The notes under the pieces: generated by a model
Databases searched by the model: none
Told to the model about the DNA's origin: nothing
The model's input: the letters and a program-made list of their open reading frames with translations, nothing else
Translations under genes and position numbers: made by a program
Source of the DNA: a virus
Taxonomy: Duplodnaviria > Heunggongvirae > Uroviricota > Caudoviricetes
Virus record (IMG/VR): IMGVR_UViG_2721755728_000004
Length of the DNA: 49,782 bases
Strand: one strand, 5' to 3'
Part shown: positions 1 to 43,116 of the stretch, piece by piece
Layout of the letters: the number at the start of each line of letters is the position of its first letter
How positions within the stretch are numbered: the stretch's first letter is position 1

Positions 1-1284
1 TTACAGACTTCTGGAAGGTTGCGCAGCTCTTACAACACGCGGTTGATCTTCCGCAGCGTCTTCCAGCGCACTTAAATCACGGTCTTTCACCTCTGGCATT
101 TTCAGCGCAGAGATTAAACCAATCACTGAATATGCCATGATCATAATGGCGATCGGATACCAGGATTCCGTCATGGTGCAGAAAATACCCGCCAGGATAG
201 GACCAAAACCGGAAGCGATAAGACCACCAATTTCTTTAGAAATAGCCATCCGGGTAAAGCGGTTTTTACAGCCGAACATTTCTGCCATGGTAATGTTTTC
301 CAGAGCAAATAATCCCAGCACCGCACAGTTATGAATCACAATCAGTGCAACCATAATGGTGCTCGGGGCATAGCTTTTATCTACAATGATAGAAAGCATT
401 GGCCATGCCAGCACAATCGCGGAGGTATTCATAATAATATACGGGATCCGGCGACCAATTTTATCGGATAACCAACCAAGGAACGGAATGGTCATAAAGC
501 CGAGAATCGAACTAATCATCAATGCATCTGTTGGAATTGCTTTGTTAAACAATAACGTCTGCACTAAATAGCCTGCAAGGAAAGTCTGAATTAAACCTGA
601 GTTACCAACCTGACCAAAACGCAGCCCTGTTGCCAGCCAGAAGGATTTGCTCTGGAACATGCTACCGGCAGGTGCAGGTTTTGCTGTCGGTTGGTTGCTG
701 TCATTAACCTTCTCAAAGACCGGGCTTTCTTTCAGATTCATACGCAACCAGATAGCAAAGACCATCACGACAACGCTCGCCAGGAACGGTATACGCCATC
801 CCCACGCCAGCAGTTCCTCTTTACTGAGAATGAAGAACATAAAGGCCCAGATTGCCGTTGCGCTCAAGGTTCCGCAGTTAGTTCCCATAGCTACAAATGA
901 GGAGATAATTCCGCGCTTACCTTTTGGCGCATATTCCGCCAGCATCGTACCGGCACCGGAAATTTCCGCACCTGCACCCAACCCCTGAATAATACGCAGC
1001 GTCACCAGCAAGATGGGTGCAAAAACACCAATCTGTGCATAGGTCGGTAACACACCAATTAAGGTGGTACAGATCCCCATCATGGTGATGGTAATAAAGA
1101 GCACTTTTTTACGCCCTATTCTGTCGCCCATTTTGCCGAAAATAAATGCTCCGACAATACGCGCCACATAACCTGCACCGTAGGTTCCCATTGCCAGAAT
1201 TAACGCCATTGCCGTTGATGATTCAGGAAAAAATATTTCATGAAACACTAACGCTGCGCCGAGCGAATATAACTGGAAATCCAT
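1..1284 (-). CDS. ydfJ: MFS-family metabolite:H+ symporter (YdfJ-like)
   Basis: 427-aa ORF with MFS motif (GKMGDRIGRKK) and many hydrophobic segments; stop codon at window start; in-frame TGA two codons upstream of the ATG. Name from recollection of the K-12 Qin-flanking gene. Confidence 0.8.
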   Translation of the reverse strand: MDFQLYSLGAALVFHEIFFPESSTAMALILAMGTYGAGYVARIVGAFIFGKMGDRIGRKKVLFITITMMGICTTLIGVLPTYAQIGVFAPILLVTLRIIQGLGAGAEISGAGTMLAEYAPKGKRGIISSFVAMGTNCGTLSATAIWAFMFFILSKEELLAWGWRIPFLASVVVMVFAIWLRMNLKESPVFEKVNDSNQPTAKPAPAGSMFQSKSFWLATGLRFGQVGNSGLIQTFLAGYLVQTLLFNKAIPTDALMISSILGFMTIPFLGWLSDKIGRRIPYIIMNTSAIVLAWPMLSIIVDKSYAPSTIMVALIVIHNCAVLGLFALENITMAEMFGCKNRFTRMAISKEIGGLIASGFGPILAGIFCTMTESWYPIAIMIMAYSVIGLISALKMPEVKDRDLSALEDAAEDQPRVVRAAQPSRSL

Positions 1285-2619: not shown

Positions 2620-3210
2620 ATGTCTCGAATTTTTGCTTACTGTCGGATATCAACGCTGGATCAGACCACCGAAAATCAACGCCGGGAAATCGAAAGTGCA
2701 GGTTTTAAAATCAAACCTCAGCAAATAATCGAAGAACACATTAGCGGCTCAGCAGCAACCAGTGAGCGTCCTGGTTTTAACCGGTTGCTTGCTCGCCTGA
2801 AATGTGGTGATCAATTGATTGTGACAAAACTGGATCGCCTTGGTTGTAATGCAATGGATATCAGGAAAACAGTGGAACAACTGACCGAAACAGGTATCAG
2901 AGTGCATTGCTTAGCATTGGGGGGCATTGACCTGACCAGTCCAACAGGAAAAATGATGATGCAAGTAATTTCAGCAGTCGCTGAATTTGAACGAGACCTT
3001 TTACTTGAACGCACTCATTCCGGGATAGTAAGAGCCCGGGGCGCAGGGAAACGTTTTGGTCGACCACCTGTGTTAAATGAAGAACAGAAACAGGTGGTAT
3101 TCGAACGGATTAAGTCAGGTGTAAGTATAAGTGCCATTGCCCGGGAATTCAAAACCTCGCGGCAAACCATTTTAAGAGCCAAAGCAAAACTTCAGACACC
3201 TGACATATAA
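2620..3210 (+). CDS. pin: Serine recombinase / DNA invertase (Pin/Gin/Hin family)
   Basis: 196 aa; N-terminal catalytic region (YCRISTLDQ with active-site Ser) and C-terminal HTH, typical of Pin/Gin/Hin invertases. Confidence 0.9.
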
Positions 3211-3307: not shown

Positions 3308-3883
3308 CTACGGCAGTGCTGGCCATTCAATATCCTGTGCAGTTGACGTATCAACACGGTTCAGCAATACCCGATACTTTTTCCAGGCTTCCAGCAACGA
3401 GATTTCTTCCTCCGTTGCAATTTCCAGATCTGCAGCATCCTGAAGTGGCGCAATATGCTCACTGGCTACCTGCATCAGGCTGTTTTTTGTTTCTTCCGCC
3501 TCCCGGATCCGGAACAGTTTTTCTGCTTCTGCATCTTTCACCCAGGCTGTGCCGTTCCACTTCTGAAACTCCCCTTCCGGGGATAACCAGGTGACATTTT
3601 CCGGTAATGAGCCGAGTTCAGAAATAAATAACGCGTCGCCGGAAGCCACGTCATAAACCGTTTTACCCCGATGATCTTCAACGAGATGCCACGATGACTC
3701 ATCACTGTTGAAAACAGCCACGAAGCCAGCCGGAATATCTGGCGGTGCAATATAGGTACTGTTTGCTGGCAGACCTGTATGAGGCGGAATATATGCGTCA
3801 CCTTCACCAATAAATTCATTAGTTCCGGCCAGCAGATTATAAATTTTTATGGTCCGTGGTTGTTCACTCATTCTGAATGCCAT
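3308..3883 (-). CDS. tfa: Tail fiber assembly protein (Tfa)
   Basis: 191 aa, immediately downstream of stf on the same strand, Tfa-like sequence. Confidence 0.85.
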
Positions 3884-6797
3884 TATGCAAGCCTCACAAT
3901 GTAGTTAAATGCGATGTTTTTGACGGTGTTTTCCGCGTTACCAGCAGCGTTAACGGTGATGGTGTGTCCATGTGAGCCAATCGCAACAGAGTGCGTATGA
4001 GCACCAATACCGACAGTATGTGCGTGAGCACCTGCAGATGCAGCTGTGCCGCTGACACTATGAGTGTGCGCTCCTGCAGCACTTGTATTCACACTGGCCG
4101 CAGACACTACCTTATGTACTGACCCATTTTGTGACCACTGGCTGACTGCTGATGCGCCTGTGACACTATGAGTATGGTTTCCGGCACTTGCGGCTGTACC
4201 GCTCACACTGTGCGTATGCGCCCCGGTGTTATTCGTGGATTTAGTGCCGTAATCAAACGACGATGTGGTTTTCGTCCCCAAATCCGTACTGGATGCACTG
4301 GCGCTGTGGGTGTGCGATTTAATGCCGTCCTGTTCCTGAGACAATACGGCCCGACCACTGGCAGGTTTGCCCTTAATCGTCCAGCCACGCATATCAGGGA
4401 TCACGCCTGACGGATAAGCGGTTGCAAGTTTCGGGTAAGCGGATTTGTCAAAAGTCTGCCCCTGCATCAGGGCATAACCAGACGGAACGGTATCTGATGG
4501 CCACGGGATTGGTGCGCCAGGCGGATAAAACTGCTCTGATGGTGTATAGAGTGAATAAACTGTACCGTCCGTTAACCCTTCCGGCTTATTAGCAGAATAT
4601 GCTGGTGACGTATGAATAGTCACGCTGGCATTACTGGTATAATCCCATTGAATATTTACACCAGTCGCATAATTTCCGATTGCAACGTAAATATCGTAAG
4701 TATCACCAGATGTATTGACCCAGGCAAAATTTGTAAACCCTGTCGATGTGCGCTGCCATAAAGCACCAGTAATCCCCTTCGGATTACCATTACCTGCACG
4801 CAAAACAAGTTCAGATATACCTGCCTGTTGAGGTGACCCCACGTTAAATCCCGCGCCACCAATCAACGTAATTGAAACAACAGAACTCGCCTGTGGCATG
4901 GTTACCGTTGCTAATTTGAACCAACCAGCACCACCGCTGAATGACATTGTTGTTGAGTTAAGCGTACCAATATCTTTCGGCGTCAGTGTTATATCCGCTG
5001 AAAGCGCCTTACCATTCACCTTACGGGCAGAAGGTACCCGACCATTCGCATTATCATTAGCTGCTTTCACTGCTTTCGGTGTCGCGGCAAGCGTTTCAGA
5101 TGCGCTGTTGGTTGCACTACTGAGCTGGACAATTCCTTTTTGTGCTGTCGTAGCGTCCTGAGCAGTATATTTCCCGTTAGCAAGGTCATAGGCTGCCTTT
5201 ACCGACTTTGGCGTTGCCGCCAGCATTTCAGATGTGCTGTTGGTCGCGCTGCTGAGCTGAACTATCCCTTTCTGTGCTGTCGTTGCATCCTGTGCGGTGT
5301 ATTTCCCGTTAGCCAGCTCATACGCGGCCTTAACGGCTTTTGGCGTTGCCGCCAGTGACTCGGAAGTGCTGTTAGTCGCACTGCTGAGCTGTACTATCCC
5401 CTTTTTCGTCGTGCTCGCATCCTCAAGCGCCACGGCGGATGCAATATCCTCTGCCCGTTTTGCCGCTGTCTCGGCGCGCGTTGCCGCGGATTCCGCCGTA
5501 CTTTTGCTCTGAGCTGCCGCCGTCGCACTGCCAGCTGCCTCTGTCGCCTTCGTGGATGCCGTCGTGGCGCTGCCCTTTGCTGCTGACGCCTGTCTGGTCG
5601 CCTCATCTTTTGAAGCAGACGCAGATGATGCCGATGACGCCGCCGAACTGGCGGACGATGCGGCAGCCGTTTTTGAGGATTCTGCGCTGGTTTCCGACGC
5701 TTTCGCGTTCGTCTCGGATGTCTTCGCTGCGGAAGCAGACCTCGCTGCTGCGCTGGCCTGTTCAGTGGCTTCGCCAGCCTTCGTTGTGGCTGTTGAAGCG
5801 GACGATGCGGCGCTTTCTGCCGATTTTCCGGCAGCGGTGGCACTGGCTGAGGCCTGCCCGGCACTTGTTGACGCGGCACTGGCAGACGACGCAGCCGCTG
5901 TTTTTGAGCCTGCCGCAGCTGAGGCGCTCTGTCCCGCTGCCGTCTCAGAAGACCTGGCGTTCGTCTCGGACGTTTTTGCCGCCTTCGCGGAATTTGCTGC
6001 CGCCGTTGCCGAGGAAGCTGCGCTACTGGCGCTCGAGGATGCGTTCGTTTCTGATGATTTTGCCGCCTCTTTTGAAGCCGACGCATCCCGGGCTGAGGTG
6101 GCAGCTTCTGACGCTTTCGTGGTCGCGGTGGATGCAGAAGTGGCGGCTGATTGTTGTGACGCTGCAGCATTCGTTCTGACGTTTTCGCGGCAGCGGCACT
6201 GGTAGCTGCCGCGCTTTTTGAGGACTCTGCAGCGGCAGCACTTTTTTCCGCTTCAGTGGCCTTTGTTGATGCCGTTCCTGCGCTGGAAGACGCTGACTGA
6301 GCCGACGAAGCGGCCTGTCCGGCTGACGTGCTGGCTGCACGTGCTGAATCTGCAGCATCAGTCGCATGGGTTGCCGCCTCACGGGCAGATGTGCCGGCAT
6401 CACTGGCTGACTTCTTCGCGGCTGCCGTGTTCTGTGCCACCACGGACGCGTTACGCGCCACCTCTTCCACCATCTGTTCAAAACGGCGCAGTGCCTCCGG
6501 ACGGGCATCATCCTCCGTCATGGCACCGAGAAAATCATTCAGCGTACCCGGCTGAGAATCTTCATACACGGTGATGGTCCCGGCATGTGACGGCGGGAAT
6601 CCTTCCACCAACAGAATAACGCTGTACTGACCGTACTCAACGTCCATGCTGTAACGCCCGGCTTCATCCGGATTTTCTGAGGCCAGCGTGTTCACCACCA
6701 CCGTGGTGCTGTTACGTTTTGCTTTCAGCTGGATTGTGCAGTTCTGTACCGGTTTTCCTGTGCCGTCTTTCAGTACACCTGAAATCTTTACTGCCAT
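3883..6797 (-). pseudogene. stf: Side tail fiber protein Stf, interrupted by an apparent 1-nt frameshift near 6174-6176
   Basis: N-terminal approx. 208 codons (from ATG at 6797) are lambda Stf-like, then the Stf-like Ala/Ser/Thr-rich sequence continues in another frame down to the conserved C-terminus (..[18 protein letters not shown]) at 3883. The ORF-track entry 5394..6803 reads Arg/Pro-rich nonsense after the shift. Confidence 0.6.
5070..5433 (-). repeat. Tandem 117-bp (39-aa) repeats inside stf, about 2.7 copies
   Basis: Protein repeat [41 protein letters not shown] occurs three times in a row; DNA shows the matching direct repeats. Boundaries approximate. Confidence 0.6.
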
Positions 6798-6800
6798 ATT

Positions 6801-6834
6801 CACCCCACAAAAAAGCCCGCCTGAACCGGCGGGC
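6801..6834 (-). terminator. Rho-independent terminator after lom, abutting the stf start
   Basis: GC hairpin (gcccgcc..ggcgggc) followed by a T-run on the minus strand. Confidence 0.5.
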
Positions 6835-10992: not shown

Positions 10993-11331
10993 TTATTTAC
11001 ATGCATTAACACTATCAGCAAAAATTTTTGGCGTTAATGCTGGTACGCGTTCATAAAGAGTAAAACTACTGCCATTTCCTGCTTTTTTGATATCAAGCAC
11101 AACATCATACCCACCCATAGCCTGTGGAACTAAAAGGCTTACCCCATTCTCAATAGGAATGGATGTTATAGGTGTTCCATTACCAGCCCATTGTCTGGAT
11201 ATGCAGCCTGACAATTCATCAATATTTTTTAATGAATTACCTTCCATTACAGGCTTGCCGGATTTTACGTAATCCAAAGATTTACATCCTGTTAAGGCAA
11301 TAATCGTGCAGAATAAAATCGTTTTGTTCAT
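10993..11331 (-). CDS. Lipoprotein moron of unknown function
   Basis: 112 aa from ATG at 11331 (MNKTILFCTIIALTGC..): signal peptide plus lipobox LTGC. AT-rich relative to neighbours and inserted between tail genes I and J. Confidence 0.7.
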   Translation of the reverse strand: MNKTILFCTIIALTGCKSLDYVKSGKPVMEGNSLKNIDELSGCISRQWAGNGTPITSIPIENGVSLLVPQAMGGYDVVLDIKKAGNGSSFTLYERVPALTPKIFADSVNACK

Positions 11332-11403
11332 ATAGCTAACCAACAGAATAATTATCAGTGTTCGATATAAATATTAAATCAGTTAGAACATGAGTAAATA
11401 ATA

Positions 11404-12045
11404 TTACCGCCCAATTACCACAACCTGACCACCATCCCCTTCATCTGCCGTGCTGATCTCCTGAGATGCCACACGTGACCCCACGCGCATTTCACCGTAC
11501 AGAACAGGCAGGACATTGCCCTGGGCAACCATGTTATCCAATGAGGAAAAATAGGTATTTTGCTTACCGTTATCAGTGGCTGACACTTTAGGCGTTTTGG
11601 CTTTCGGTGCCAGCATCTGCGCAACACCGCCTAAAACCATACCTGCCCCAAGAGAGAACATGAGATTACTTGCAACAATACTAAGCCCCGGCATCCAGAT
11701 TGCCGTAGCAATTAGCGCCGCACCCAGCACTGCCTGAAAAATACCGCCACTTTTGGCACCCGCCAGACGCGGTACGATGTGGATCACGGCACCATTTGCC
11801 AGCGGCTCATTAAGACGGGCAGATAATTCGTTTTCGCCTGCATCACGCCCGGAAATGCGCACCTGATACCAGCCCTCATTCAGTTTCTGGCGAAACGCCG
11901 GAAGCTGCGTGGCCAGTGCGCGGATGGCTTCAGCCCCCGTTTTCACACGAAGGTCGATGCGGCGGCCAAATCGTTGCAAATCCCCGTAAAGGCAGATGCG
12001 TGCCATTCCCGGTGACGCCAGAGGGAGTGTGTGCGTCGCTGCCAT
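11404..12045 (-). CDS. Tail assembly protein I
   Basis: 213 aa, lambda I-like (MAATHTLPLASPGMARI.., C-terminal ..GDGGQVVVIGR). Confidence 0.85.
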   Translation of the reverse strand: MAATHTLPLASPGMARICLYGDLQRFGRRIDLRVKTGAEAIRALATQLPAFRQKLNEGWYQVRISGRDAGENELSARLNEPLANGAVIHIVPRLAGAKSGGIFQAVLGAALIATAIWMPGLSIVASNLMFSLGAGMVLGGVAQMLAPKAKTPKVSATDNGKQNTYFSSLDNMVAQGNVLPVLYGEMRVGSRVASQEISTADEGDGGQVVVIGR

Positions 12046-12719
12046 TTGTCGGTATACCTCTCTCGTTTACTCAGTTGTTCAGGAATATGGTGCAGCAGCT
12101 CACCGTCGCCGCAGTAAATGGCGGCATGATTCGGCACCGATGAACCAAAACAGCACAGCAGAATATCGCCCGCCTGTGCAGAGGACAGGGGCACCCGGTA
12201 AAAGCCCGTTGCCTCCATATTGTCCAGGTACAGGTTCTGACCGTTTCGCCACCACTCATCCTCGCGGTGAAAATCCGGCATCTCAATCCCCGCCAGATGG
12301 TATGCATCCCGGAACAGCGTGTAACAGTCCGTCACCCCGTGCTCAAAACGCCGCCCGGTCAGGTGTGGAACACAGCGGAATTTATGAATGTCTCCCCGGC
12401 AGACCAGCCACCAGGACAGTGCGCTTTTTATCTGCAGACGCCGGTCTGCCTCGCTCAGCCAGGGCAGACCACAGGGATGACTGTGGACCAGCGCCACAAT
12501 CCCCCCCTGCATCTCTGCCTGCAGCCAGTCTTCCGGTGCAATACGAAAATACGCCTCCGGCTCTGCGGAGATATTCACGCAGGGAAAATATCTTTCCCCC
12601 TCCGGCGTTCTCACCACGAAGCCGCACGACTCCGCTGGCGCACATCGCCGGGCGTGCGCCAATATATTGCTATAGAGCATGAGAACTCCTGATAAAAAAC
12701 CCAGCCGAAGCTGGGTCAT
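11943..12719 (-). CDS. Tail assembly protein K (MPN/JAMM + NlpC/P60 domains)
   Basis: HSHP metal-binding motif and NlpC/P60-like C-terminal part; overlaps the start of I. True start may be internal. Confidence 0.85.
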   Translation of the reverse strand: MTQLRLGFLSGVLMLYSNILAHARRCAPAESCGFVVRTPEGERYFPCVNISAEPEAYFRIAPEDWLQAEMQGGIVALVHSHPCGLPWLSEADRRLQIKSALSWWLVCRGDIHKFRCVPHLTGRRFEHGVTDCYTLFRDAYHLAGIEMPDFHREDEWWRNGQNLYLDNMEATGFYRVPLSSAQAGDILLCCFGSSVPNHAAIYCGDGELLHHIPEQLSKRERYTDKWQRRTHSLWRHREWHASAFTGICNDLAAASTFV

Positions 12720-12734
12720 TTCGTTGGCAATCTG

Positions 12735-13739
12735 TTAGTAGTGATGCAGTGAAGGAGGTAATTCTTTGTTCTTAAGTCTTACCCATGCAGAAAGATTCGT
12801 TGGTCCGTCTGGCTCATTAATATCAATATCTCGCGTGTGATTGATTAAAACGTCTCTCGCCATTCCGATAACATACGAGAACTCATGGCCGTAGTCGTAG
12901 CACCTGCCAGAATAGTTTGATTGAATTTGCTTTAGCGCCGGATACAGTTCGCGGAATAATGCCTGTGAGCGGTTGGCATAATCCCATAGCCATACAAGGC
13001 TGTTTGCTTCTTTCGCTGAAAACTCATTGGTGCTCTTCTCTTGTTTGCCGATTAACTCTCCTTCAAGCGGAACGCGAGCAGCAAGTGACAGAGCTTCGGT
13101 AAACTGCTCCTCGCTGATTTCTTTGTATGAACACCCAAAATGAGATTTCAGTGACGACCACATGGTAATCATCGCCTTCGCCTGTTTTTCTTTTGGCAGA
13201 GACTGACCGCGACTCATGACGAGTTGTTTAATGGCTTCCTGCTGTTCAGTGGTGATTTTCCCCAGCAATGCCTTTTTAGCTTTGCGCGGGTTAACCACAT
13301 GGCCTTTAGTCCAGTACTCGTAGAGCACATCGTCACACTCTTCCTGATACTGGATTACCTTCTCGCGGATTTCAGGGCGGACTTTGTTTGGTTGAATACT
13401 TGAAAGCCAAGCCGCAAATTTACGAAAGGCAAGACATGTCATTAACTGTTTACCGCCAGCAGAAGGTATTTCGATTTCCGAAATACCTTTGGCAAACCTC
13501 TGTTTTAACTTAACAAATTGAGCAGCCCAAACCATCCCCATACCTTCAACAACAGGCTTCATAGGAACATAAGGCTCATTGTTAATTCCAACCAAAAAGA
13601 GATTTGTTCCGTGGAATGGAACATTGATTGTGCGATCTGCAATTGCTAAACTAGTCATATCAGTTTTCTCGTGGTTAACTGGTAATTTAGAAGCCTCAAT
13701 GGTTGCAGCCATTGGGGCTTCGCTGTTTTTAGCGACCAT
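12735..13739 (-). CDS. Antirepressor-like protein (Ant-type)
   Basis: 334 aa from ATG at 13739 (RBS GAGGTG); N-terminal region resembles phage antirepressor domains; lies directly downstream of an Arc-like gene. Family assignment from memory only. Confidence 0.55.
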   Translation of the reverse strand: MVAKNSEAPMAATIEASKLPVNHEKTDMTSLAIADRTINVPFHGTNLFLVGINNEPYVPMKPVVEGMGMVWAAQFVKLKQRFAKGISEIEIPSAGGKQLMTCLAFRKFAAWLSSIQPNKVRPEIREKVIQYQEECDDVLYEYWTKGHVVNPRKAKKALLGKITTEQQEAIKQLVMSRGQSLPKEKQAKAMITMWSSLKSHFGCSYKEISEEQFTEALSLAARVPLEGELIGKQEKSTNEFSAKEANSLVWLWDYANRSQALFRELYPALKQIQSNYSGRCYDYGHEFSYVIGMARDVLINHTRDIDINEPDGPTNLSAWVRLKNKELPPSLHHY

Positions 13740-13902
13740 TCGCCACCTCTTCCCTAACACCTTTTGCCAGCAAACGAACAATTGCAGAGTTCAGAGATAT
13801 ACAGTCCATTTCCGCCAGGCGGCGAAGGTCTTCATTCAGCCGTGATGGAAGGCGAAGGTTGAGTTTGATATTTTTGCGCTCAGTGAAAAGTGTATCTTGC
13901 AT
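13729..13902 (-). CDS. Arc-like ribbon-helix-helix repressor (57 aa)
   Basis: ORF below the 60-aa track cutoff, found by hand: MQDTLFTERKNIKLNLRLPSRLNEDLRRLAEMDCISLNSAIVRLLAKGVREEVANGR. RBS AAGGAG upstream; stop overlaps the ant start; RHH pattern like P22 Arc. Confidence 0.6.
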   Translation of the reverse strand: MQDTLFTERKNIKLNLRLPSRLNEDLRRLAEMDCISLNSAIVRLLAKGVREEVANGR

Positions 13903-14008
13903 TATCTAATCTCCTTTATTTGGTGCCAAAGTGACGCCATGAAGGCCATAATGCCACCATTGAAATCGTATGGCAATATGGCACCATGATTTTTTTGAGA
14001 GATTTGCA

Positions 14009-14329
14009 ATGGCCGAAAAACAAGTAAAAGACTACGACAAGTTCAACCTCCGTTTTCCTGACGGAATGCGAGATGCTATAGCTGAACGAGCCAAACGAAA
14101 CGGGCGCTCTATGAACTCAGAGATTGTTCAGATACTGGAAGATGCCTTGAATGCAGAAAATACTCTTGGGGAAATAGCAGACAAAATCAACAGCGTCTCG
14201 GTTCCGCTAAATGTTGATGCGCTAGTTCAACTTCAAGCCCAAGTGATCGCCATGCAAAAAGAAATACAGGAAAAGTTCAGAGAGCAGAACGAAAAGTTGA
14301 GAGAACTGCTAAACAAAAAACCCACCTGA
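14009..14329 (+). CDS. Mnt-like ribbon-helix-helix repressor
   Basis: FNLRFPDGMRDAIAERAKRNGRSMNSEIVQILEDAL closely resembles the P22 Mnt N-terminus; transcribed divergently from arc-ant. Confidence 0.65.
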   Translation: MAEKQVKDYDKFNLRFPDGMRDAIAERAKRNGRSMNSEIVQILEDALNAENTLGEIADKINSVSVPLNVDALVQLQAQVIAMQKEIQEKFREQNEKLRELLNKKPT

Positions 14330-14348
14330 CGGTGGGCATAATCCATTA

Positions 14349-15044
14349 CTACGAAAGTTTGTTAATGGAAAGGAAGCCGCCAAAGTTGCCGACGTTATTG
14401 CGGAACTTACAACCGCTCAGGCATTTGCTGCATTTATCCTTCGTGATATCGGACGTTGGCTGGTCATATTCATCCGCGACAGCCGGACCGTGATAACCGC
14501 ACTCATCGCCGCGATAGGTCCAGGTGCAGGTGTTGGCCAGCATGATACGTCCCGGAAAAACAGCGCCGTCCGTTTCCGTCGGCGTGGACAGTACAAAAGA
14601 GGCACTCACCGCGCTCAGTTCGCTGCACTGCTCAATGCGCCAGCGGCTGATCACCTCCTGCTCCGGATCGGCGTCACTGTTTCCGTTGACGAAGTTCACC
14701 GCATCCAGAAAACGGGCGTAAACCTTACGCCGGACCACCGTTCCGCCGACCAGACTCTGCAGGTCTTTCGCCATCCCGGTGACCATGCCGTGCAGGTTAG
14801 CAACCGTCAGTGTCGGACGGGCAGCACTGCCCTTGCCATTCAGTTCAAATCCCGTCCCCTGAATGGGGTATGCCTGATACTGCCGCCCCTGCCAGGTAAC
14901 CGGCTCACCTTTTTCGTTCTGCTCATTACAGAAAAAATAACGTTCACCACCGACCACTGTCAGATCGATTTCCCAGAGCACCACCTGGGCTGACTGAGTG
15001 AGGCGTGTCGTCTCATGATGTGTTTCCTGTGGAATATCCAGCAT
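14349..15044 (-). CDS. Minor tail protein L
   Basis: 231 aa, lambda L-like. Confidence 0.9.
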   Translation of the reverse strand: MLDIPQETHHETTRLTQSAQVVLWEIDLTVVGGERYFFCNEQNEKGEPVTWQGRQYQAYPIQGTGFELNGKGSAARPTLTVANLHGMVTGMAKDLQSLVGGTVVRRKVYARFLDAVNFVNGNSDADPEQEVISRWRIEQCSELSAVSASFVLSTPTETDGAVFPGRIMLANTCTWTYRGDECGYHGPAVADEYDQPTSDITKDKCSKCLSGCKFRNNVGNFGGFLSINKLS

Positions 15045-25106: not shown

Positions 25107-25324
25107 CAGAACCTCGCCAGCCGGTACCCGGGATGCCCCCGTCGTCGTGTAATCAGAGCCGCAAGGCGGCGCTCCCACTCCTGCCGCCCCTGCCGGATCT
25201 CAGATAAGTTTTCCATGGTCATCTGCTGACCATTAAAAGTGACGGATTTTCCGTCCAGCACCGCCATTTCAGCTTCCGTATAACGCTGAATCATGGCTTC
25301 AATATCATTCTGATTCATAACCAT
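25106..25324 (-). CDS. Head-tail joining / head completion protein (gpW-like)
   Basis: 72 aa immediately after the terminase gene; C-terminus RRRGHPGYRLARF resembles lambda W (..RRRGPAGFYV). Confidence 0.55.
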   Translation of the reverse strand: MVMNQNDIEAMIQRYTEAEMAVLDGKSVTFNGQQMTMENLSEIRQGRQEWERRLAALITRRRGHPGYRLARF

Positions 25325-27418
25325 CCTCCGGAAGTCAGCCAGGGGTTAACATCGTCAGTTACTGTTTTCTTCCGTTTTTGTTTTTTAACAGGCGTGGATA
25401 CCGGTTCCGGTGAGGGTGACGGTTCGGTACTGTCCGGGACACACTCCAGCCAGGTTTCCCGGCTCGCCCACTCCGGTGCATCCGGCCAGCGGATCTTTTC
25501 GTATCCATGCAGAATGACCAGAGCCTCGGCATACACCATCAGGTCAAAAGCTTCGTTGGCACCGCGACCCGGCTTACTCCATTTCCCGTCACTGCTCCGC
25601 TCTTCATACGTCAGTTCGTCGTAAAACCAGCTCCCCAGCCAGTCAGGGAAATGCACATAGCCGGGACCTGGCGAGTCACGCCATAACGCGTTATTCACCC
25701 GGTCTTTCAGGGCATCCGTCTGAAGAAGCCAGAGCGGCACATCACCTGCGGCCTGCGCCCGTCGGCCCGTTCGTCCGGTGTTATCAGGGAATGTACGGGT
25801 GATCAGTTTTGCTCGCCGGATGCTGTCGCCCTTAAACAGGTAAATACGTTTACCAAGGCCATCACGACGGCAACGACGCCAGAATTTATAGGCATTATCA
25901 GTGACCCCGTCTTCACCGCCGGAGTCCACCGCCATTGCCATCAGTCGCATTTGTTGAGAAGGGGCGGAGGCCAGCGGCCAGCTTTTATGAAAAACATCCG
26001 TCAGCAGGACATCCCAGTCTTCCGGATAGCTGGCCGGATCAATTCGCTGGCTCTCCCCGTCGCTGTCACCGCGCAATGACTGCGTGATGTTGTAACGATC
26101 AATAATCCAGCGTTCGCCACGGCTGCCATAGCCCGTTACCTGAACCACAAAACGGCGATGACGTCCCGCCTGCACATCCACTGTCGCCACAAGGAAATTA
26201 ACGCCATCCGGCACACTGCGGGAAGGAACTGGCTCTGCCCGCTGCTCAAGCAGTTCACTTTTTCGTTGCTCCATGCTGGCGCGGGGAAGATAAGGTAATC
26301 CCCAGTCGGTATTGATAACCGTCTTGAGTGTTTCTTCACTTCCGGTTGTCTCGTATTCCTGTTCTGCAGTAAGCAGTTTGTAAACGAGTTGCGAGAGTGT
26401 CTGGTAAGCAGCTGCCGGACCCTCCATCCAGAATGACGCAATACGTGAGCGTCGGGGATCACCATAACGACTGCCATCCGCATTGATGGATTCACCATCC
26501 CGCAACCAGACCCCACGTCCGTTCAGCTCACGTTTTTGTTCAGGCATAATCCGTCCTGAACAGGAAGGACACTGAATATAAGCCGCCTCACTTGCCAGCA
26601 CAGGATCGGCAATATCACGGAAACCAGCAACCACATCGCCGCAGGGCTGAAAATACTCACCACAGTGTGGACAGGGCCAGTACCAGCGACGGCGATCACC
26701 ACGGTTATAGAGCGACAGGATCCCCGTGGTTGGTGGAGCCTCATGCGGTGAAGTCCGTCGCCATTTCACATCCTTCACATCCCTGCCGGGGGAACTCTCC
26801 ACAAGCGTCATACCGCTGGACATAAATGTGGTGGTACGTTTTGAGGCAAGAGAGAAAGCATCCCCCTCGCCATCAATATCTTCCGGAAAACGGTCATAAT
26901 CCGTCAGCGCGACGCATTTATAATCTGATGAAGGACATGATATTGACTGACGGCCAGCCGATTTTCAGGTAGTTGCCAGCAAGGAATGTTCTGTCATAAA
27001 CGTTGTTGTCATTTTTGTTCGGACTCAGGCGACTGACCACTTCCGGGCTGACGCGAAACGTTCTGGCGAGTCGTTTTTTGGAGTGTTCGCGGGCTTTTTC
27101 CTCCGTCATCTGAATGATCAGCATATCAGCAGGATCGCAAATCACGTTGTAAATCACCCAGCCGTCAATCAGGCCGATAGTCTTGCCGGTTCGTGCCGGG
27201 CCAACAAATATCACTGCGTCGTATTCACGCGAGGCCAGGCAGTTCATAGGCTCAATAACATACGGTGCCACCAGCGGATCCCACGGGACTGAGTTCCCTG
27301 CCCCCATGGGCACCCGCATATACTGAGCAACGGCATCAGCAACCCGCATTCGTCTCGGTGCGCGAAGGATATAACCTGAATCGGTTCGTGCTGCCTTTGC
27401 GGTTTCCTGATTCAGCAT
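25315..27418 (-). pseudogene. Terminase large subunit (lambda gpA-like), split by an apparent frameshift near 26930-26950
   Basis: N-terminal 166 codons (Walker A GPARTGKT) end at a stop at 26918; the gpA-like continuation (TDYDRFPEDIDGEG, CPHCGE..) is open in another frame from 26964 downward. The two frames overlap by only 44 nt. Confidence 0.65.
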
Positions 27419-37290: not shown

Positions 37291-37578
37291 TCAGAGAATG
37301 CGTTTGACCGCCTCGCTATATACTTCCGAGCGTTCTCTTTTCCCAACAGAAATCACGAAAACGACAACTTTCTCGTCTATAACCTGGTATACAAGGCGAT
37401 AGCCTGAAGACCGGAGCTTAATCTTGTAACAATCAGGCATACCACGGAGCTTGTTTGCTTCAATCCGGGGTGACTCAAGTACTTCAACCAGCTTCTTTTT
37501 CAACTGTTCACGTACCGTCGAGCCCAGCTTTCGCCATTCCTTTAGTGCCCGCTCGTCAAAATCCAGAAAATACGCCAT
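37291..37578 (-). CDS. relE: mRNA interferase toxin RelE
   Basis: 95 aa, MAYFLDFDERALKEWRKL.. Confidence 0.9.
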   Translation of the reverse strand: MAYFLDFDERALKEWRKLGSTVREQLKKKLVEVLESPRIEANKLRGMPDCYKIKLRSSGYRLVYQVIDEKVVVFVISVGKRERSEVYSEAVKRIL

Positions 37579-38898: not shown

Positions 38899-40482
38899 GT
38901 CCACAAAACTGCCAACTTCCGCTTCTTGCTCTTAGCGGACATTAGCATAGGCTATTTACCATAACGCCTCATTACGCGCACCGCCCAGACTGACTCAGCG
39001 CGTTTCTGGCATATCCCCGGTAAAACAAGTAACAAACCACCCGAAAATGAACACCAGAAACGCGACTTAAGAATCTACCCTATGAATGGATATGCACTCA
39101 ACCGAATCGATCTTGGTTTCAATCTATTTTATCGGGATCAGGCTTCTTTTTAGGTAACTTCGGGGGCTTAACTTGCTGATGACTTTGCGTTCGGCGCGTA
39201 GGCCAGGGATGGTCAGCTTTAGATTTAACATAGTATTTTGAGCGTAAATCAATACGGGCATTATCCACTCGTTCATGGACACTCTTTTCATCATCCAGTG
39301 GTATAGGCTCCGGGCCATCAACATACTTTTCCCAGCCCAGCGCTTTCCCGTCATACAGAACGTTAATTTCACCGTCAAAGTTCTCACATACAGTAACAAC
39401 CGAATGCCTAAGTCGATATCCCCGGCCCTCACTGCGTACCTGAAACGCACTGCTTTTGTACTGGAAAGTGAGATTTTTAGACAGAACGCGCTTCGCCTGT
39501 AGGCTGAAGATATAACCCAGTTCCTCTTCAGAATGGTGCACATCAAGATGAGCATTATCAGTAGTACGAGGCGACGTAGCGAACCGGTTGTTATAGGCTT
39601 CAATAAAGGTCGGCAACCATGCATTTGCTGTTTCAATATCACTGATATTCTGAAGCCACATTTCTTTGACCAGCCTGTCCTGTAGTGTCTGATTGGCGCG
39701 CTCTACCCGCCCTTTTGCCTGCGGGCTGTTGGCATGGATTGGCTCGATGCCCAGTGTCTTTATCGCACGAGTGAACTGGGTCAGCTCACCTTCCCGCTCT
39801 GGGTTATTTACCCTGAATATACTGTGTCTATCAGAGTAGAGAGCGAGCGGTACGCCATGATCATTAAGGTAACCCCGGAGGGTTTCCATGTAAGCCCGGG
39901 TTGTTTCAGCAGGCACAAAACGCAACGCCATCAACGCACTGGTGGCATCATCAATGAAAACGATCAGTGTACATCTGGGGCCTCGATTTTCAAACCAGTC
40001 ATGAGGTGAGCCATCAATCTGGATCAGTTCACCGTAAGATGGTCGTCGCATGCGGCGTTGATATATACGGGCAATTTTACGACGGCGTTCACGCCATAAC
40101 CCCTCTTCTATCATCCACTTTCTGAGAGTTTCAACGGATAAAGATAAACCGTGTATCTCGCGCAATTTTTCGCACGCAAACGTAGGTCCAAAATCAGCGT
40201 AACGGCCTTTGAGGAGTGAAATTACTGTTGCTCTGAATTCAGTAGAAAAGGAATTATTAGGACGCTTTCCACGTCGGTGGGAAACCAGACCAGAAGGCCC
40301 TTCATTTCTATACCGTTGCACCAGACGTTTAACCTGCCGAATAGAAATGCCAATGCGTGCCGCAGCTTGTTCCTGAGTAATATGTCGATTAATTGACTCC
40401 TGAATAATCTGAAGTCGGTGGAGTTCCTTATGACTCATCGTAACAGTCTCTTTGATCATGAAAAATCCCCCAGAGAATTGTC
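38899..40482. mobile_element. Putative insertion sequence, about 1.58 kb, carrying one DDE transposase
   Basis: Bracketed by identical 8-bp direct repeats TGGGGACA (38891..38898 and 40483..40490) that may be a target-site duplication. Terminal inverted repeats could not be identified, so boundaries are tentative. Confidence 0.4.
39119..40459 (-). CDS. DDE transposase with integrase-core (rve) domain and N-terminal HTH (IS481/ISNCY-like)
   Basis: 446 aa; HTH N-terminus, then D (QIDGSPH), D (YSDRHS) and E (GRVERANQ) spaced like retroviral-integrase-type transposases. Confidence 0.7.
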   Translation of the reverse strand: MIKETVTMSHKELHRLQIIQESINRHITQEQAAARIGISIRQVKRLVQRYRNEGPSGLVSHRRGKRPNNSFSTEFRATVISLLKGRYADFGPTFACEKLREIHGLSLSVETLRKWMIEEGLWRERRRKIARIYQRRMRRPSYGELIQIDGSPHDWFENRGPRCTLIVFIDDATSALMALRFVPAETTRAYMETLRGYLNDHGVPLALYSDRHSIFRVNNPEREGELTQFTRAIKTLGIEPIHANSPQAKGRVERANQTLQDRLVKEMWLQNISDIETANAWLPTFIEAYNNRFATSPRTTDNAHLDVHHSEEELGYIFSLQAKRVLSKNLTFQYKSSAFQVRSEGRGYRLRHSVVTVCENFDGEINVLYDGKALGWEKYVDGPEPIPLDDEKSVHERVDNARIDLRSKYYVKSKADHPWPTRRTQSHQQVKPPKLPKKKPDPDKID

Positions 40483-41972: not shown

Positions 41973-42420
41973 TTGCTTTTTCTATAAGTTCGTCAGTTTC
42001 ACGATCCACTACGGCAGGATCAGCAAAAAGCAGTCCGGACTCCACCACATCGCCATATTCTTTGTTTAACCCGGCGATCATGTACGTGATGCTTTTTCCG
42101 TCACTAATTTCACGATACAACCTGAAATCATTAATCCGAATAGCCTCCATAATTGCAGGCACTAGCGCCGTGAACTTTTCACGCTTATCCCTGGTGTCGA
42201 TAGCCTTCCAGCGTTCGAATATCTTCACTCGATTAACGCCAAGTGCTCGCTGATCAACCGCGCCACCTTCATCTGTGACACGCTGAACATCGATGTTCGG
42301 GCGCTCTTTCAAAGCCCAGAATGCTTCAGTGATTAATATCGTCGCCTGCTCCTGTGTCATTCCTGGTCGACATATCCAGGCATCCAGAGCCTCACGAGCC
42401 TGTTCAGGAGTGATTTTCAT
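41899..42420 (-). CDS. Hypothetical early protein (possibly YdaT-like)
   Basis: 173 aa directly downstream of the Cro-like gene, the position YdaT-family proteins occupy in Rac-like prophages; no sequence-level confirmation. Confidence 0.4.
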   Translation of the reverse strand: MKITPEQAREALDAWICRPGMTQEQATILITEAFWALKERPNIDVQRVTDEGGAVDQRALGVNRVKIFERWKAIDTRDKREKFTALVPAIMEAIRINDFRLYREISDGKSITYMIAGLNKEYGDVVESGLLFADPAVVDRETDELIEKAIAFKLAYRQQYQQKAGWNYEPSFC

Positions 42421-42631
42421 TGTTCAACCGCCCCGCCCGCTTCGTCTTACGATATTCGTCATAAACCTTGGGATCATACAGAAGCTCGCCGCCAGATGCC
42501 TCCTGTAGACGCATCGCGCGACCTTCAGGAACCAGCTCTTGCCATTGAGAAACAGCAGATGGGTCAACGCCAGCAGCTTTCGCTACTTTGGCTTTCGTAC
42601 CGTAAAAATTAATTACGTCTGATTTAAACAT
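42404..42631 (-). CDS. Cro-like HTH regulator (DicC/YdaS-like)
   Basis: 75 aa from MFKSDVINFYG.., divergent from the DicA-like repressor. Confidence 0.7.
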   Translation of the reverse strand: MFKSDVINFYGTKAKVAKAAGVDPSAVSQWQELVPEGRAMRLQEASGGELLYDPKVYDEYRKTKRAGRLNNENHS

Positions 42632-42708
42632 CGCACCTCCAATATTGAGTTTTCTCAATGCTAATCACTCAAGGAATCTCAAGTCAAGGGTTATTAAGAT
42701 ATCTAAAT

Positions 42709-43116
42709 ATGAACGAGAAAACTTTAGGTCAACGCATTAGAGAAAGACGTAAGCAGGTAGGCTTAAGTCAAAACGGTTTAAGCAAAGCTGCTGGCGTATC
42801 TGGCTCATCAATTTCATTATGGGAAAGTGACCATACAGCCCCGCGCGGGCAAAATTTGCATCGCCTCGCCGAGGTATTGCAATGTTCACCAACTTGGATA
42901 CTGTTTGGCGACGAGGACAAAACACCAGCTCCCCCTGTTTCACTCGATAGTGCCTTAGACTTATCGGAAGATGAGTTAGAGATGCTGCGTTTGTATCGCG
43001 CACTTCCTAAATCAGAGCAACAAGCACAACTCAGCGAACTCCGCGCCCGCGTTGAGAATTTTAATCGCCTGTTCACCGAGCTATTAGAGGCTCGCAAACG
43101 CAACAAGCATCAATAA
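42709..43116 (+). CDS. dicA: XRE-family repressor DicA
   Basis: 135 aa; HTH and the conserved stretch LQCSPTWILFGDEDK match DicA as I recall it. Confidence 0.85.
   Translation: MNEKTLGQRIRERRKQVGLSQNGLSKAAGVSGSSISLWESDHTAPRGQNLHRLAEVLQCSPTWILFGDEDKTPAPPVSLDSALDLSEDELEMLRLYRALPKSEQQAQLSELRARVENFNRLFTELLEARKRNKHQ

Follow-up and report, generated by a model that had tools for sequence, protein, structure and literature searches.

The stretch of DNA analyzed here (49,782 nucleotides, referred to below as the window) comes from a lambda-like E. coli prophage. Three open reading frames spanning 12735-14329 lie between its tail genes L and K, as the first-pass annotation had reported, and both the reading frames and the flanking genes were confirmed. 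They comprise a mnt-like gene and, divergent from it, an operon of an arc-like gene and ant (Table 1). That annotation's inventory of mnt, arc and ant held, although it had missed a sar-like antisense RNA and two flanking terminators. No second copy of ant, arc or mnt is present within the window.

Table 1. Features of the L|K junction, listed in the direction of the late operon.
Feature	Coordinates	Strand	Description and basis
Tail gene L	14349..15044	-	PF05100 Phage_tail_L, 7.5e-99; left flank in the late-operon sense
Intrinsic-terminator-like hairpin and T-run directly after L	14310..14337	-	Scan: GCCCACCGTCAGGTGGGT + TTTTTGTTTA
mnt-like gene	14009..14329	+	106 aa; N-terminal ribbon-helix-helix, predicted long C-terminal helix
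Operator candidates, TGGYGNCA x4	13921-28 (forward); 13932-39, 13952-59, 13979-86 (reverse)		Motif search
Candidate promoter Pant	13948..13976	-	TTGCCA-17-CATTAT; scan; TG before -10
Candidate promoter Pmnt	13923..13952	+	GTGCCA-18-CATAAT; consensus scan only, 9/12 matches
arc-like gene	13729..13902	-	57 aa; ribbon-helix-helix; first gene of the ant operon
Alternative ant start	13737..13739	-	In-frame ATG overlapping the arc stop; 334-aa form
sar-like antisense RNA	13659..13731	+	~70 nt; between arc and ant; complementary to ant ribosome-binding region
Candidate promoter Psar	13624..13652	+	TTGATT-17-TAAACT; within first ant codons; by eye from P22 alignment
ant	12735..13658	-	P22-type antirepressor, 307 aa; conserved start; 334 aa if 13739 used
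Intrinsic-terminator-like hairpin and T-run after ant	12688..12717	-	Scan: GACCCAGCTTCGGCTGGGTT + TTTTATCAGG
Tail gene K	11943..12680	-	Prok-JAB and NlpC/P60; right flank; PGAP start

The window L gene shares 90% DNA identity with lambda L up to the stop codon. Homology to lambda stops at 14346 (the lambda L stop) and restarts at 12661 (position 14158 of lambda, where K begins), from which point the K region is again ~90% identical; this gap indicates an insert of ~1.68 kb. We use the term moron in the Hendrix/Casjens sense, for DNA that has been inserted between two genes that neighbor each other in related phages and that brings a promoter and a terminator with it. L and K are adjacent in lambda, and the insert has promoter candidates and terminators of its own. 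The terminators lie on the late-operon strand at both flanks. The hairpin after L, whose loop holds the mnt stop codon, is found at the same place in SPN3UB, in a Klebsiella phage, and in other L|K alleles, and it should keep non-antiterminated transcription out of the cassette. Beyond the hairpin after ant come the SD (AGGAG) and then the start of K, a junction that is identical in the L|K allele L031. K most likely starts at 12680, the PGAP call with that SD, rather than at 12719, where the SD duplex is far weaker (0.1 versus -6.9 kcal/mol) and the start codon falls within the terminator hairpin.

Homology searches performed with the three proteins recovered ribbon-helix-helix (RHH) folds, Arc and Mnt relatives, and antirepressor domains, in agreement with the first-pass annotation. 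The mnt-like product matches Pfam Arc (1.4e-20), P22 Mnt (BLASTP, 6e-13; 50% identity over the RHH), and the PDB entries for Arc, Mnt (1mnt, 1.4e-7) and AmrZ. The Mnt-like RHH protein described previously is thus upheld in fold and homology, with a length of 106 aa, not 107, and PGAP places its start at the same position. In NCBIfam, the protein returned only sub-threshold matches to TprA and YlcI/YnfO RHH proteins. Its C-terminal half shows no resemblance in sequence to the tetramerisation domain of P22 Mnt, and a C-terminal helix at residues 69-102 was seen only in a low-confidence AF2 single-sequence model (pLDDT, 64.5) that was used for secondary structure only.

The 57-aa protein had also been called Arc-like, and the searches bear this out: it scores 22.1 bits against Pfam Arc (cutoff, 20.4) and matches P22 Arc by BLASTP (7e-6), and a profile of its family matches the P22 Arc structure over its full length (5e-6) as well as pArc (5.5e-10). 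Its gene has an SD duplex of -8.7 kcal/mol. Both small proteins carry K-N-R at the DNA-contacting strand positions. By sequence, these proteins are Arc/Mnt-type RHH repressors.

The large protein had been considered only loosely assignable, a view that the data overturn. It contains P22_AR_N (1.9e-39) and P22_AR_C (9.8e-30) domains, matches phrog_245 Ant (2.4e-107), and is 54% identical to P22 Ant over its full length and ~90% identical over the C-terminal 100 residues. The sequence assignment to P22-type Ant is therefore firm. NCBIfam holds no family for Ant or for the Arc-like protein.

The start of ant is ambiguous between two in-frame candidates. The 334-aa open reading frame described earlier as overlapping the arc stop does exist, with its ATG at 13739 overlapping that stop by 11 nt and the full frame extending to 13781, and yet it represents only one of two possible starts. 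The other, at 13658, aligns with residue 1 of P22 Ant, yields 307 aa, and was chosen by PGAP, whereas RefSeq calls the phage 2851 gene as 334 aa. The SD duplex is -7.6 kcal/mol at 13739 versus -3.0 at 13658. An ATG located 18 nt before the sar hairpin was found in two unrelated arc lineages, and in each of the 14 distinct spacers no stop interrupts the frame of the upstream ATG before the cargo start.

The mnt-like gene and the arc-like/ant operon share a 106-nt spacer (13903-14008). Here, the -10 element of candidate Pmnt overlaps that of candidate Pant on the other strand, and the Pant -35 is kept as TTGACA or TTGCCA at the same place in related cassettes. Inverted repeats had been noted in this spacer as possible operators, and a repeat with 11 of 13 positions complementary was indeed found (13921-13933/13974-13986). 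This repeat alone is marginal, being equalled by 97 of 2,000 dinucleotide shuffles, and it is therefore the repeated TGGYGNCA motif that carries signal. Four copies in 106 nt were seen in 0 of 2,000 shuffles, with ~0.06 expected from the density across the window, for a motif that was defined only after the sequence had been seen. Overlapping the promoter candidates as they do, these copies are operator candidates. The copies at 13921 and 13932 are inverted with respect to each other and lie just downstream of the candidate Pant -10, at the position that Omnt has in P22, and the outer operator arms co-vary between phages (GGTGCCA in the window, GGGGCCA in SPN3UB, and AGCACCA in Oslo). No LexA box (CTGT-N8-ACAG) is present anywhere in the window, the best CTG-N10-CAG site having 7 mismatches to the 20-mer LexA consensus; SOS-controlled antirepression of the Gifsy type was rejected because this box is lacking.

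Between arc and ant, the predicted sar-like RNA consists of a 5' stem-loop, a 14-bp terminator hairpin (13690-13721), and a U-run. It folds at -34.8 kcal/mol (z, -6.55). The RNA aligned with Rfam RF00262 over its full length at 28.3 bits (E, 0.0047), short of the gathering score of 43, whereas the controls scored 97.8 (P22), 69.4 (L031), 48 (SPN3UB), and 38.4 bits (L017). By these scores, the window sar is a diverged relative below the curated membership threshold. Across 35 distinct variants, the hairpin positions were 96.9% paired and included 27 double changes, which was matched in 0 of 500 shuffles, and the G-U pairs favor the + strand. P22 encodes sar at the same place, and aligning the two DNAs brings the ant ATG, the sar hairpin, and the promoter region into register. 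Among 48 distinct cargo 5' ends, 39 have a TAnAnT hexamer at the position of the candidate Psar -10.

Cassette DNA that is 97 to 100% identical was found in 267 of 5,426 complete E. coli genomes, with the identity running across all 1851 bases and into the L and K ends. Intact copies were also found in 21 phage records. Near-identical copies reside in Stx-converting phages 2851, 1717, YYZ-2008, and Stx2a_WGPS4/6/8 and in E. coli prophages. Several other mnt/arc alleles sit at the L|K junction with boundaries identical to those of the window cassette. The regulatory cassette, with this or another antirepressor cargo, also occurs at other sites in other phages; in ES18-like and Klebsiella phages, it lies upstream of the tape measure gene. 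Public records of near-identical copies label the genes as encoding Ant and Arc-family proteins, so the cassette is already annotated and is not novel. Those annotations disagree over the start of ant, giving either 307 or 334 aa, frequently lack mnt or arc, and in no case include the antisense RNA. A literature search found no paper describing or testing the L|K-junction cassette.

Based on its sequence, we regard the region as homologous, in its entirety, to immunity I (immI) of phage P22 and as a self-contained and regulated antirepressor cassette carried as a moron (probability, roughly 85%). The first-pass annotation had likewise proposed a P22 immI-like module embedded in a structural operon, and the match in gene order and orientation sustains that proposal. 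The following steps are transferred by analogy from the established behavior of P22 (PMC2629481, PMC3121763). In a lysogen, the Mnt-like protein would keep Pant closed, and hence no Ant would be made, while the upstream terminator would halt stray transcription from L. After infection, Pant would fire briefly and then be shut off by the Arc-like protein. The antisense RNA would pair with the ant ribosome-binding region and limit translation of Ant; it may do so late in infection as well, when Q-antiterminated transcription would cross the whole cassette to K, I, and J. Ant would bind CI-type repressors non-covalently and inactivate them with broad specificity, and the cassette would thereby act as a second determinant of immunity. 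If the resident Mnt does not repress the ant of a superinfecting phage, that phage could then override repression by resident prophages.

The cassette could instead be a fossil, intact in sequence and disused, a passenger of a defective prophage and of recombining tail-gene modules. The terminase large subunit gene of the host prophage has an in-frame stop and a transposase gene lies in its replication region, so this prophage may be defective; moreover, the role of Ant is incompletely understood even in P22, where neither lytic nor lysogenic growth requires it (PMC3121763). However, comparison with the 97%-identical copy of phage 2851 supports purifying selection on the cassette. The substitutions are strongly biased to synonymous sites, with 8 synonymous and 0 non-synonymous differences in the mnt-like gene and 16 and 8, respectively, in ant; the arc-like gene and the control region are identical, and the sar hairpin differs at one position only, where a G-U pair has become A-U. 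Inducible Stx phages and the 267 genomes have also retained the cassette intact, and the varied mnt/arc alleles at L|K suggest continuing selection on specificity. We therefore regard disuse as quite improbable.

Two further explanations assign the genes other roles. Because its domains fall among the KilA-N/Bro-N-like phage DNA-binding regulators, the large protein could be a transcription factor or have another host-directed role, with the RHH pair merely regulating it. In related cassettes, the P22_AR_N domain is indeed replaced by Bro-N/Rha-type cargo, and no solved structure was found for Ant. Genomic context is of little help in naming a partner. A short member of the DicA family serves as the resident primary repressor in the window, whose DicA/DicC region spans 42404-43116. 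Identical cassettes were found in prophages with either DicA-type or S24-type repressors, so that no partner is evident; a tie between the cassette and the DicA-type repressor was rejected on the basis of a 100%-identical cassette in a prophage of E. coli C3 that has an S24-type repressor. Against such a role stand the full-length and C-terminal identities to P22 Ant, the one protein of the family with established antirepressor activity, and conservation of the entire P22 regulatory apparatus around ant, which together make it very unlikely. It is barely credible that the RHH genes have nothing to do with immunity and make up a toxin-antitoxin or partition-type pair. Their matches to phrog_795 and phrog_2685, some of which are labeled "partition protein ATPase," and weak matches to HicB and FitA-like RHH proteins would suggest it, but RefSeq P22 mnt bears the same misleading label, the cassette has no gene for a toxin or a ParA-type ATPase partner, PADLOC found no defense-system matches among the cassette proteins, and synteny with P22 is complete.

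Under the immI reading, the cassette as it stands is of limited import: its regulatory design is a textbook one, and the E. coli prophage module that carries it is common. The practical value of the cassette lies in annotation, since the antisense RNA and mnt are missing from many records and the ant start is inconsistent. Two extensions can be proposed, which we think rather unlikely. In the first, translation would indeed start at the ATG that overlaps the arc stop: having finished arc, ribosomes would re-initiate at 13739 and translate across the sar target, making an N-terminally extended Ant or terminating exactly at the ant start. If true, this ATG would add a layer of translational coupling above the antisense control, without a counterpart in P22. 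The second concerns DicA-type prophages. In a prophage that lacks a LexA box and has a non-cleavable DicA-type repressor, Ant could provide the route for derepression in trans of such prophages and of their many lambdoid neighbors in EHEC. If Ant inactivates DicA-type or heterologous CI-type repressors, cross-induction among lambdoid and Stx prophages of EHEC would be affected and, with it, toxin-phage mobilization.

The closest known system is P22 immI, characterized by Susskind, Sauer, McClure, and colleagues (summarized in PMC2629481 and PMC3121763). It has the same parts in the same order and orientation, with identities to the window proteins of 54% (Ant), 30% (Arc), and 50% (Mnt, RHH only), and an antisense RNA of the same two-hairpin shape at the same place. 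P22 immI likewise ends in a terminator and has its place in the late operon, where genes 16 and 9 flank it; placement within a structural operon is therefore not unusual. The differences are also clear. The window cassette occupies the L|K site of a long-tailed lambda-like E. coli prophage rather than the gene 16|gene 9 site, its operator candidates are unrelated to the Oarc and Omnt sequences of P22, the C-terminal half of its Mnt is unrelated in sequence to that of P22, and its sar scores well below P22 sar (28.3 versus 97.8 bits). Unlike P22 immI, it has an extra in-frame ATG with a strong SD overlapping the arc stop and an additional terminator on the upstream side. Promoter geometry differs as well, in that the candidate -10 elements overlap in the window, whereas in P22 each -35 overlaps the -10 of the other promoter.

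P22 immI in its late-operon setting has been described as the "ant moron" (PMC2629481). In P22-like phages, this moron is a late-operon insert of variable content that is expressed independently (Villafane et al. 2008, PMC2629481); it often contains an ant homologue with mnt and arc and shows high flux, with many alleles per site. Several alleles occupy the L|K site too, although the ant moron was described for P22-type podoviruses and the window cassette resides in lambda-type siphoviruses. The LexA-controlled small antirepressors (GfoA/GftA of Gifsy, Tum of 186, and AntC of N15) and Rem of Qin achieve the end effect that is predicted for the window Ant, inactivation of a prophage repressor by protein binding, and serve DicA-type repressors (PMC3121763, PMC10448788), the class to which the resident repressor here belongs. 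In contrast to the small LexA-controlled proteins, the window Ant is a 307-aa two-domain protein of the P22 type, with predicted control by RHH repressors and an antisense RNA in place of the LexA control seen in Gifsy, 186, and N15. P22 Ant itself acts on the repressors of P22, L, lambda, and 21 (PMC3121763).

Homology to lambda extends up to window position 14346, where L stops, and picks up again at 12661, where K begins (lambda 14158); the intervening ~1.68 kb is therefore an insert. The anatomy of the cassette carried there was directly observed, and the ORF list, the sequence, and the flanking tail genes agree with the three genes that the first-pass annotation had placed between K and L. 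ATG 13739 of the ant ORF lies in an 11-nt overlap with the stop of the 57-aa gene. The most probable start of K is 12680, the PGAP call, which has the Shine-Dalgarno sequence AGGAG (-6.9 kcal/mol); a longer start, 12719, falls within the terminator-like hairpin and has no Shine-Dalgarno sequence. In the lambda reference (14127-14276), K is annotated from 14276. The JAB part at the N terminus of K in the window is matched by a lambda ORF that begins at the ATG immediately following the stop of L (MTQTESAILAHARRC…), and this ORF carries an in-frame interruption in lambda.

Features of the cassette at the L-K junction and of its flanks
Feature	Coordinates	Strand	Description	Source
Tail gene L	14349..15044		PF05100, 7.5e-99	
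Terminator-like hairpin after L	14337-14320 + T-run	late-operon strand	mnt stop codon in loop	scan
mnt-like gene	14009..14329	+	106 aa	ORF list and sequence
Pant candidate	13976-13948	-	TTGCCA-17-CATTAT, upstream TG	scan
Pmnt candidate	13923-13952	+	GTGCCA-18-CATAAT	scan
arc-like gene	13729..13902	-	57 aa	ORF list and sequence
ant ORF	ends 12735	-	334 aa counted from ATG 13739	ORF list and sequence
Terminator-like hairpin after ant	12717-12698 + T-run	late-operon strand	K ribosome-binding site next	scan
Tail gene K			JAB and NlpC/P60; followed by I and J	

The proposal that these genes encode two Arc/Mnt ribbon-helix-helix (RHH) proteins and an antirepressor holds, since both RHH homology and antirepressor domains were found. 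The Ant-like protein, previously regarded as only loosely assignable, is firmly assigned: the large ORF contains both P22 antirepressor domains (P22_AR_N, 1.9e-39; P22_AR_C, 9.8e-30), matches phrog_245, "anti-repressor Ant" (2.4e-107), and is 54% identical to P22 Ant, rising to ~90% over the last 100 residues. The 106-aa protein belongs to the Arc RHH family (1.4e-20), matches the solved chains of Arc, Mnt, and AmrZ, and aligns with P22 Mnt (6e-13; RHH 50% identical). Its C-terminal half lacks similarity to Mnt, and a single-sequence model of low confidence (pLDDT 64.5) places one long helix there, at residues 69-102. The 57-aa protein barely exceeds the Pfam Arc cut-off (22.1 versus 20.4 bits) and matches P22 Arc at 7e-6; a family profile built from nine relatives out of related loci matched P22 Arc over its full length (5e-6) and pArc (5.5e-10) in the PDB.

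What the first-pass annotation overlooked in this module is a sar-like antisense RNA. The Rfam sar family (RF00262) gave a full-length match at 13658-13724 on the + strand, with a score of 28.3 bits (E 0.0047) that falls short of the gathering score (43). P22 scores 97.8 bits, another allele at the L-K junction 69.4, Salmonella phage SPN3UB 48, and relatives closer to the window 34 to 38; the window copy belongs to this graded series as a diverged member. P22 has its annotated sar gene exactly in the interval from the arc stop to the ant ATG, and in a DNA alignment the two sar regions are in register. The fold of the stretch (-34.8 kcal/mol, z -6.55) comprises a stem-loop at the 5' end, a 14-bp hairpin, and a U-run after it. 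A pattern search of viral contigs yielded 120 loci with the hairpin, corresponding to 93 distinct 120-nt variants. Among the 35 distinct variants used for covariation, 96.9% of positions were paired, with 27 double-sided changed cells at pattern-free positions; no shuffle of 500 did as well, and slid registers all fell far short. Selection on the structure acts on the antisense strand, since on the mRNA strand its G-U pairs would not match. A Psar candidate, TTGATT-17-TAAACT (13624-13652), occupies the place of P22 Psar, where a TAnAnT hexamer occurs in 39 of 48 distinct 5' ends of the cargo, as we call the antirepressor gene downstream of the mnt-arc-sar unit, including those of differing cargo proteins.

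Public records differ in the start of ant: PGAP annotation of E. coli genomes (NZ_CP010119.1) places it at 13658, for 307 aa, and RefSeq phage 2851 (NC_049943.1) has the 334-aa form. The P22 Ant start aligns with ATG 13658, and in close homologues sharing the N terminus MTSLAIADR the upstream ATG is absent or out of frame. The sole phage 2851 difference in the 27-codon extension is non-synonymous and turns a hairpin G-U pair into A-U, which points to constraint on the extension at the RNA rather than the protein level. In favor of 13739, its Shine-Dalgarno sequence is far better (-7.6 versus -3.0 kcal/mol), and the ATG lies over the arc stop, 18 nt ahead of the sar hairpin, in two unrelated arc lineages (window 13737-13739; comparison loci L004-L007, L012, L013, L017, L074, L080, L082, L088, L102, L116, and L121). 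In 8 of the 14 distinct spacers with that ATG, its reading frame continues into the cargo, and in the other 6 it ends at or over the cargo ATG, as TGAcATG or ATGA, whereas 17 of 38 spacers without it are incompatible with such coupling (one-sided hypergeometric P ~0.001, calculated by hand on sequences that are not phylogenetically independent). Thus, 13658 is taken as the conserved start and 13739 as possibly a second start or a coupling device. By way of ATG 13739, translation of ant may be coupled to that of arc over the antisense target, an arrangement that P22 does not have.

In the control region, the -35 of the Pant candidate is kept in related cassettes, and the -10 of the + strand candidate overlaps that of the - strand candidate on the opposite strand. 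Inverted repeats had been suggested as operators here. The repeat is present and consists of the two outermost copies of a motif, TGGYGNCA, but by itself it is marginal (97/2000 shuffles); the signal lies in the four-copy motif (13921 forward; 13932, 13952, and 13979 reverse), as four copies were reached in 0/2000 shuffles. The outermost arms co-vary between phages, as would protein-binding sites. Copies 13921 and 13932 are a pair in opposite orientations, a short way downstream of the -10 of the Pant candidate, at the place of P22 Omnt. By alignment offsets, both RHH proteins carry K, N, and R at three DNA-contacting β-strand positions, whereas P22 Arc has Q, N, and R and P22 Mnt has H, N, and R. 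Shared residues in the two putative repressors would fit the single repeated motif. The two terminator-like hairpins bracket the cassette on both sides, and another allele at this junction has both in corresponding positions.

All functional steps proposed for the cassette are drawn by homology with P22. In the lysogen, the Mnt-like protein would repress Pant; after infection, the Arc-like protein would end the burst. The antisense RNA would block Ant translation, including that from late read-through transcripts, and Ant would bind repressors and inactivate them. The natural role of P22 Ant, which targets the P22, L, lambda, and 21 repressors, is incompletely understood (PMC3121763).

The primary immunity genes of the prophage (42404-43116) are DicA-type and DicC-type (238.8 and 164.7 bits), with YdaT-like and DUF1391 (YdfA-like) neighbors. 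The DicA-type repressor is ~135 aa long and lacks an S24 cleavage domain; this class is under antirepressor control (PMC3121763; PMC10448788). No LexA box was found in the whole window, so an SOS input to induction is not visible. E. coli C3 carries a 100%-identical cassette within a prophage that has an S24-type repressor, and the cassette is therefore not bound to one repressor type. The prophage of the window shows signs of decay. Its terminase large subunit appears to be split by an in-frame stop at ~26824-26917, between ORFs 25315-26823 and 26918-27418, into a 166-aa GpA_ATPase fragment and a 502-aa remainder; the prophage may be unable to package DNA. A 446-aa transposase-like ORF (39119-40459; HTH_28 and rve_3) inside the replication gene region may be a further sign of a defective prophage. 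Elsewhere, a 116-aa ORF between tail genes I and J (10993-11343), with a lipoprotein-like signal (…LTGC), matches phrog_914 (unknown function) and has no Pfam, NCBIfam, or PADLOC match; it is a second small tail-operon insert. A ParE-family toxin gene (37291-37578; PF05016, 2.2e-13) lies between the replication genes and Q. A serine invertase (Resolvase and HTH_7) adjoins tail-fiber and tail-fiber-assembly genes (2620-3210 and 3308-6803), suggesting an invertible host-range segment.

The copy in phage 2851 is 97% identical. In mnt, all 8 differences from it are synonymous, and in ant 16 are synonymous and 8 non-synonymous; arc shows no difference, and the only one in the control region is a single T within a T-run. 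Twenty-one phage records, most of them of Stx-converting phages (2851, 1717, YYZ-2008, and WGPS4/6/8), contain the whole 1851-base stretch at 96 to 100% identity, as do 267 of the 5,426 complete E. coli genomes. The genomes label its genes as "phage antirepressor Ant" and as two "Arc family DNA-binding proteins"; mnt or arc is left out of several phage records, and an antisense RNA is listed in no public record inspected. No functional study of this cassette copy was found in the literature. The cassette is a known kind of element, already annotated in public records. In other alleles at this junction, the terminators on either side and the 3' half of the ant gene are shared, and mnt and arc differ. 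Elsewhere, mnt-arc-sar units lie upstream of the tape measure gene, with P22-type or Bro-N/Rha-type cargo, in SPN3UB and Oslo (Salmonella) and in a Klebsiella phage; further sites are the nin region of PhiR5_1, an E. coli phage, and the interval from gene 16 to gene 9 in phages of the P22 type. In SPN3UB, Oslo, PhiR5_1, and Klebsiella ST11-VIM1phi8.1, the unit through the Shine-Dalgarno sequence and ATG is kept as a regulatory cassette, and the cargo is swapped just past the start codon (P22_AR_N-type or Bro-N/Rha-type antirepressor). For P22-like phages, the occurrence of such units is covered by the published "ant moron" concept (PMC2629481).
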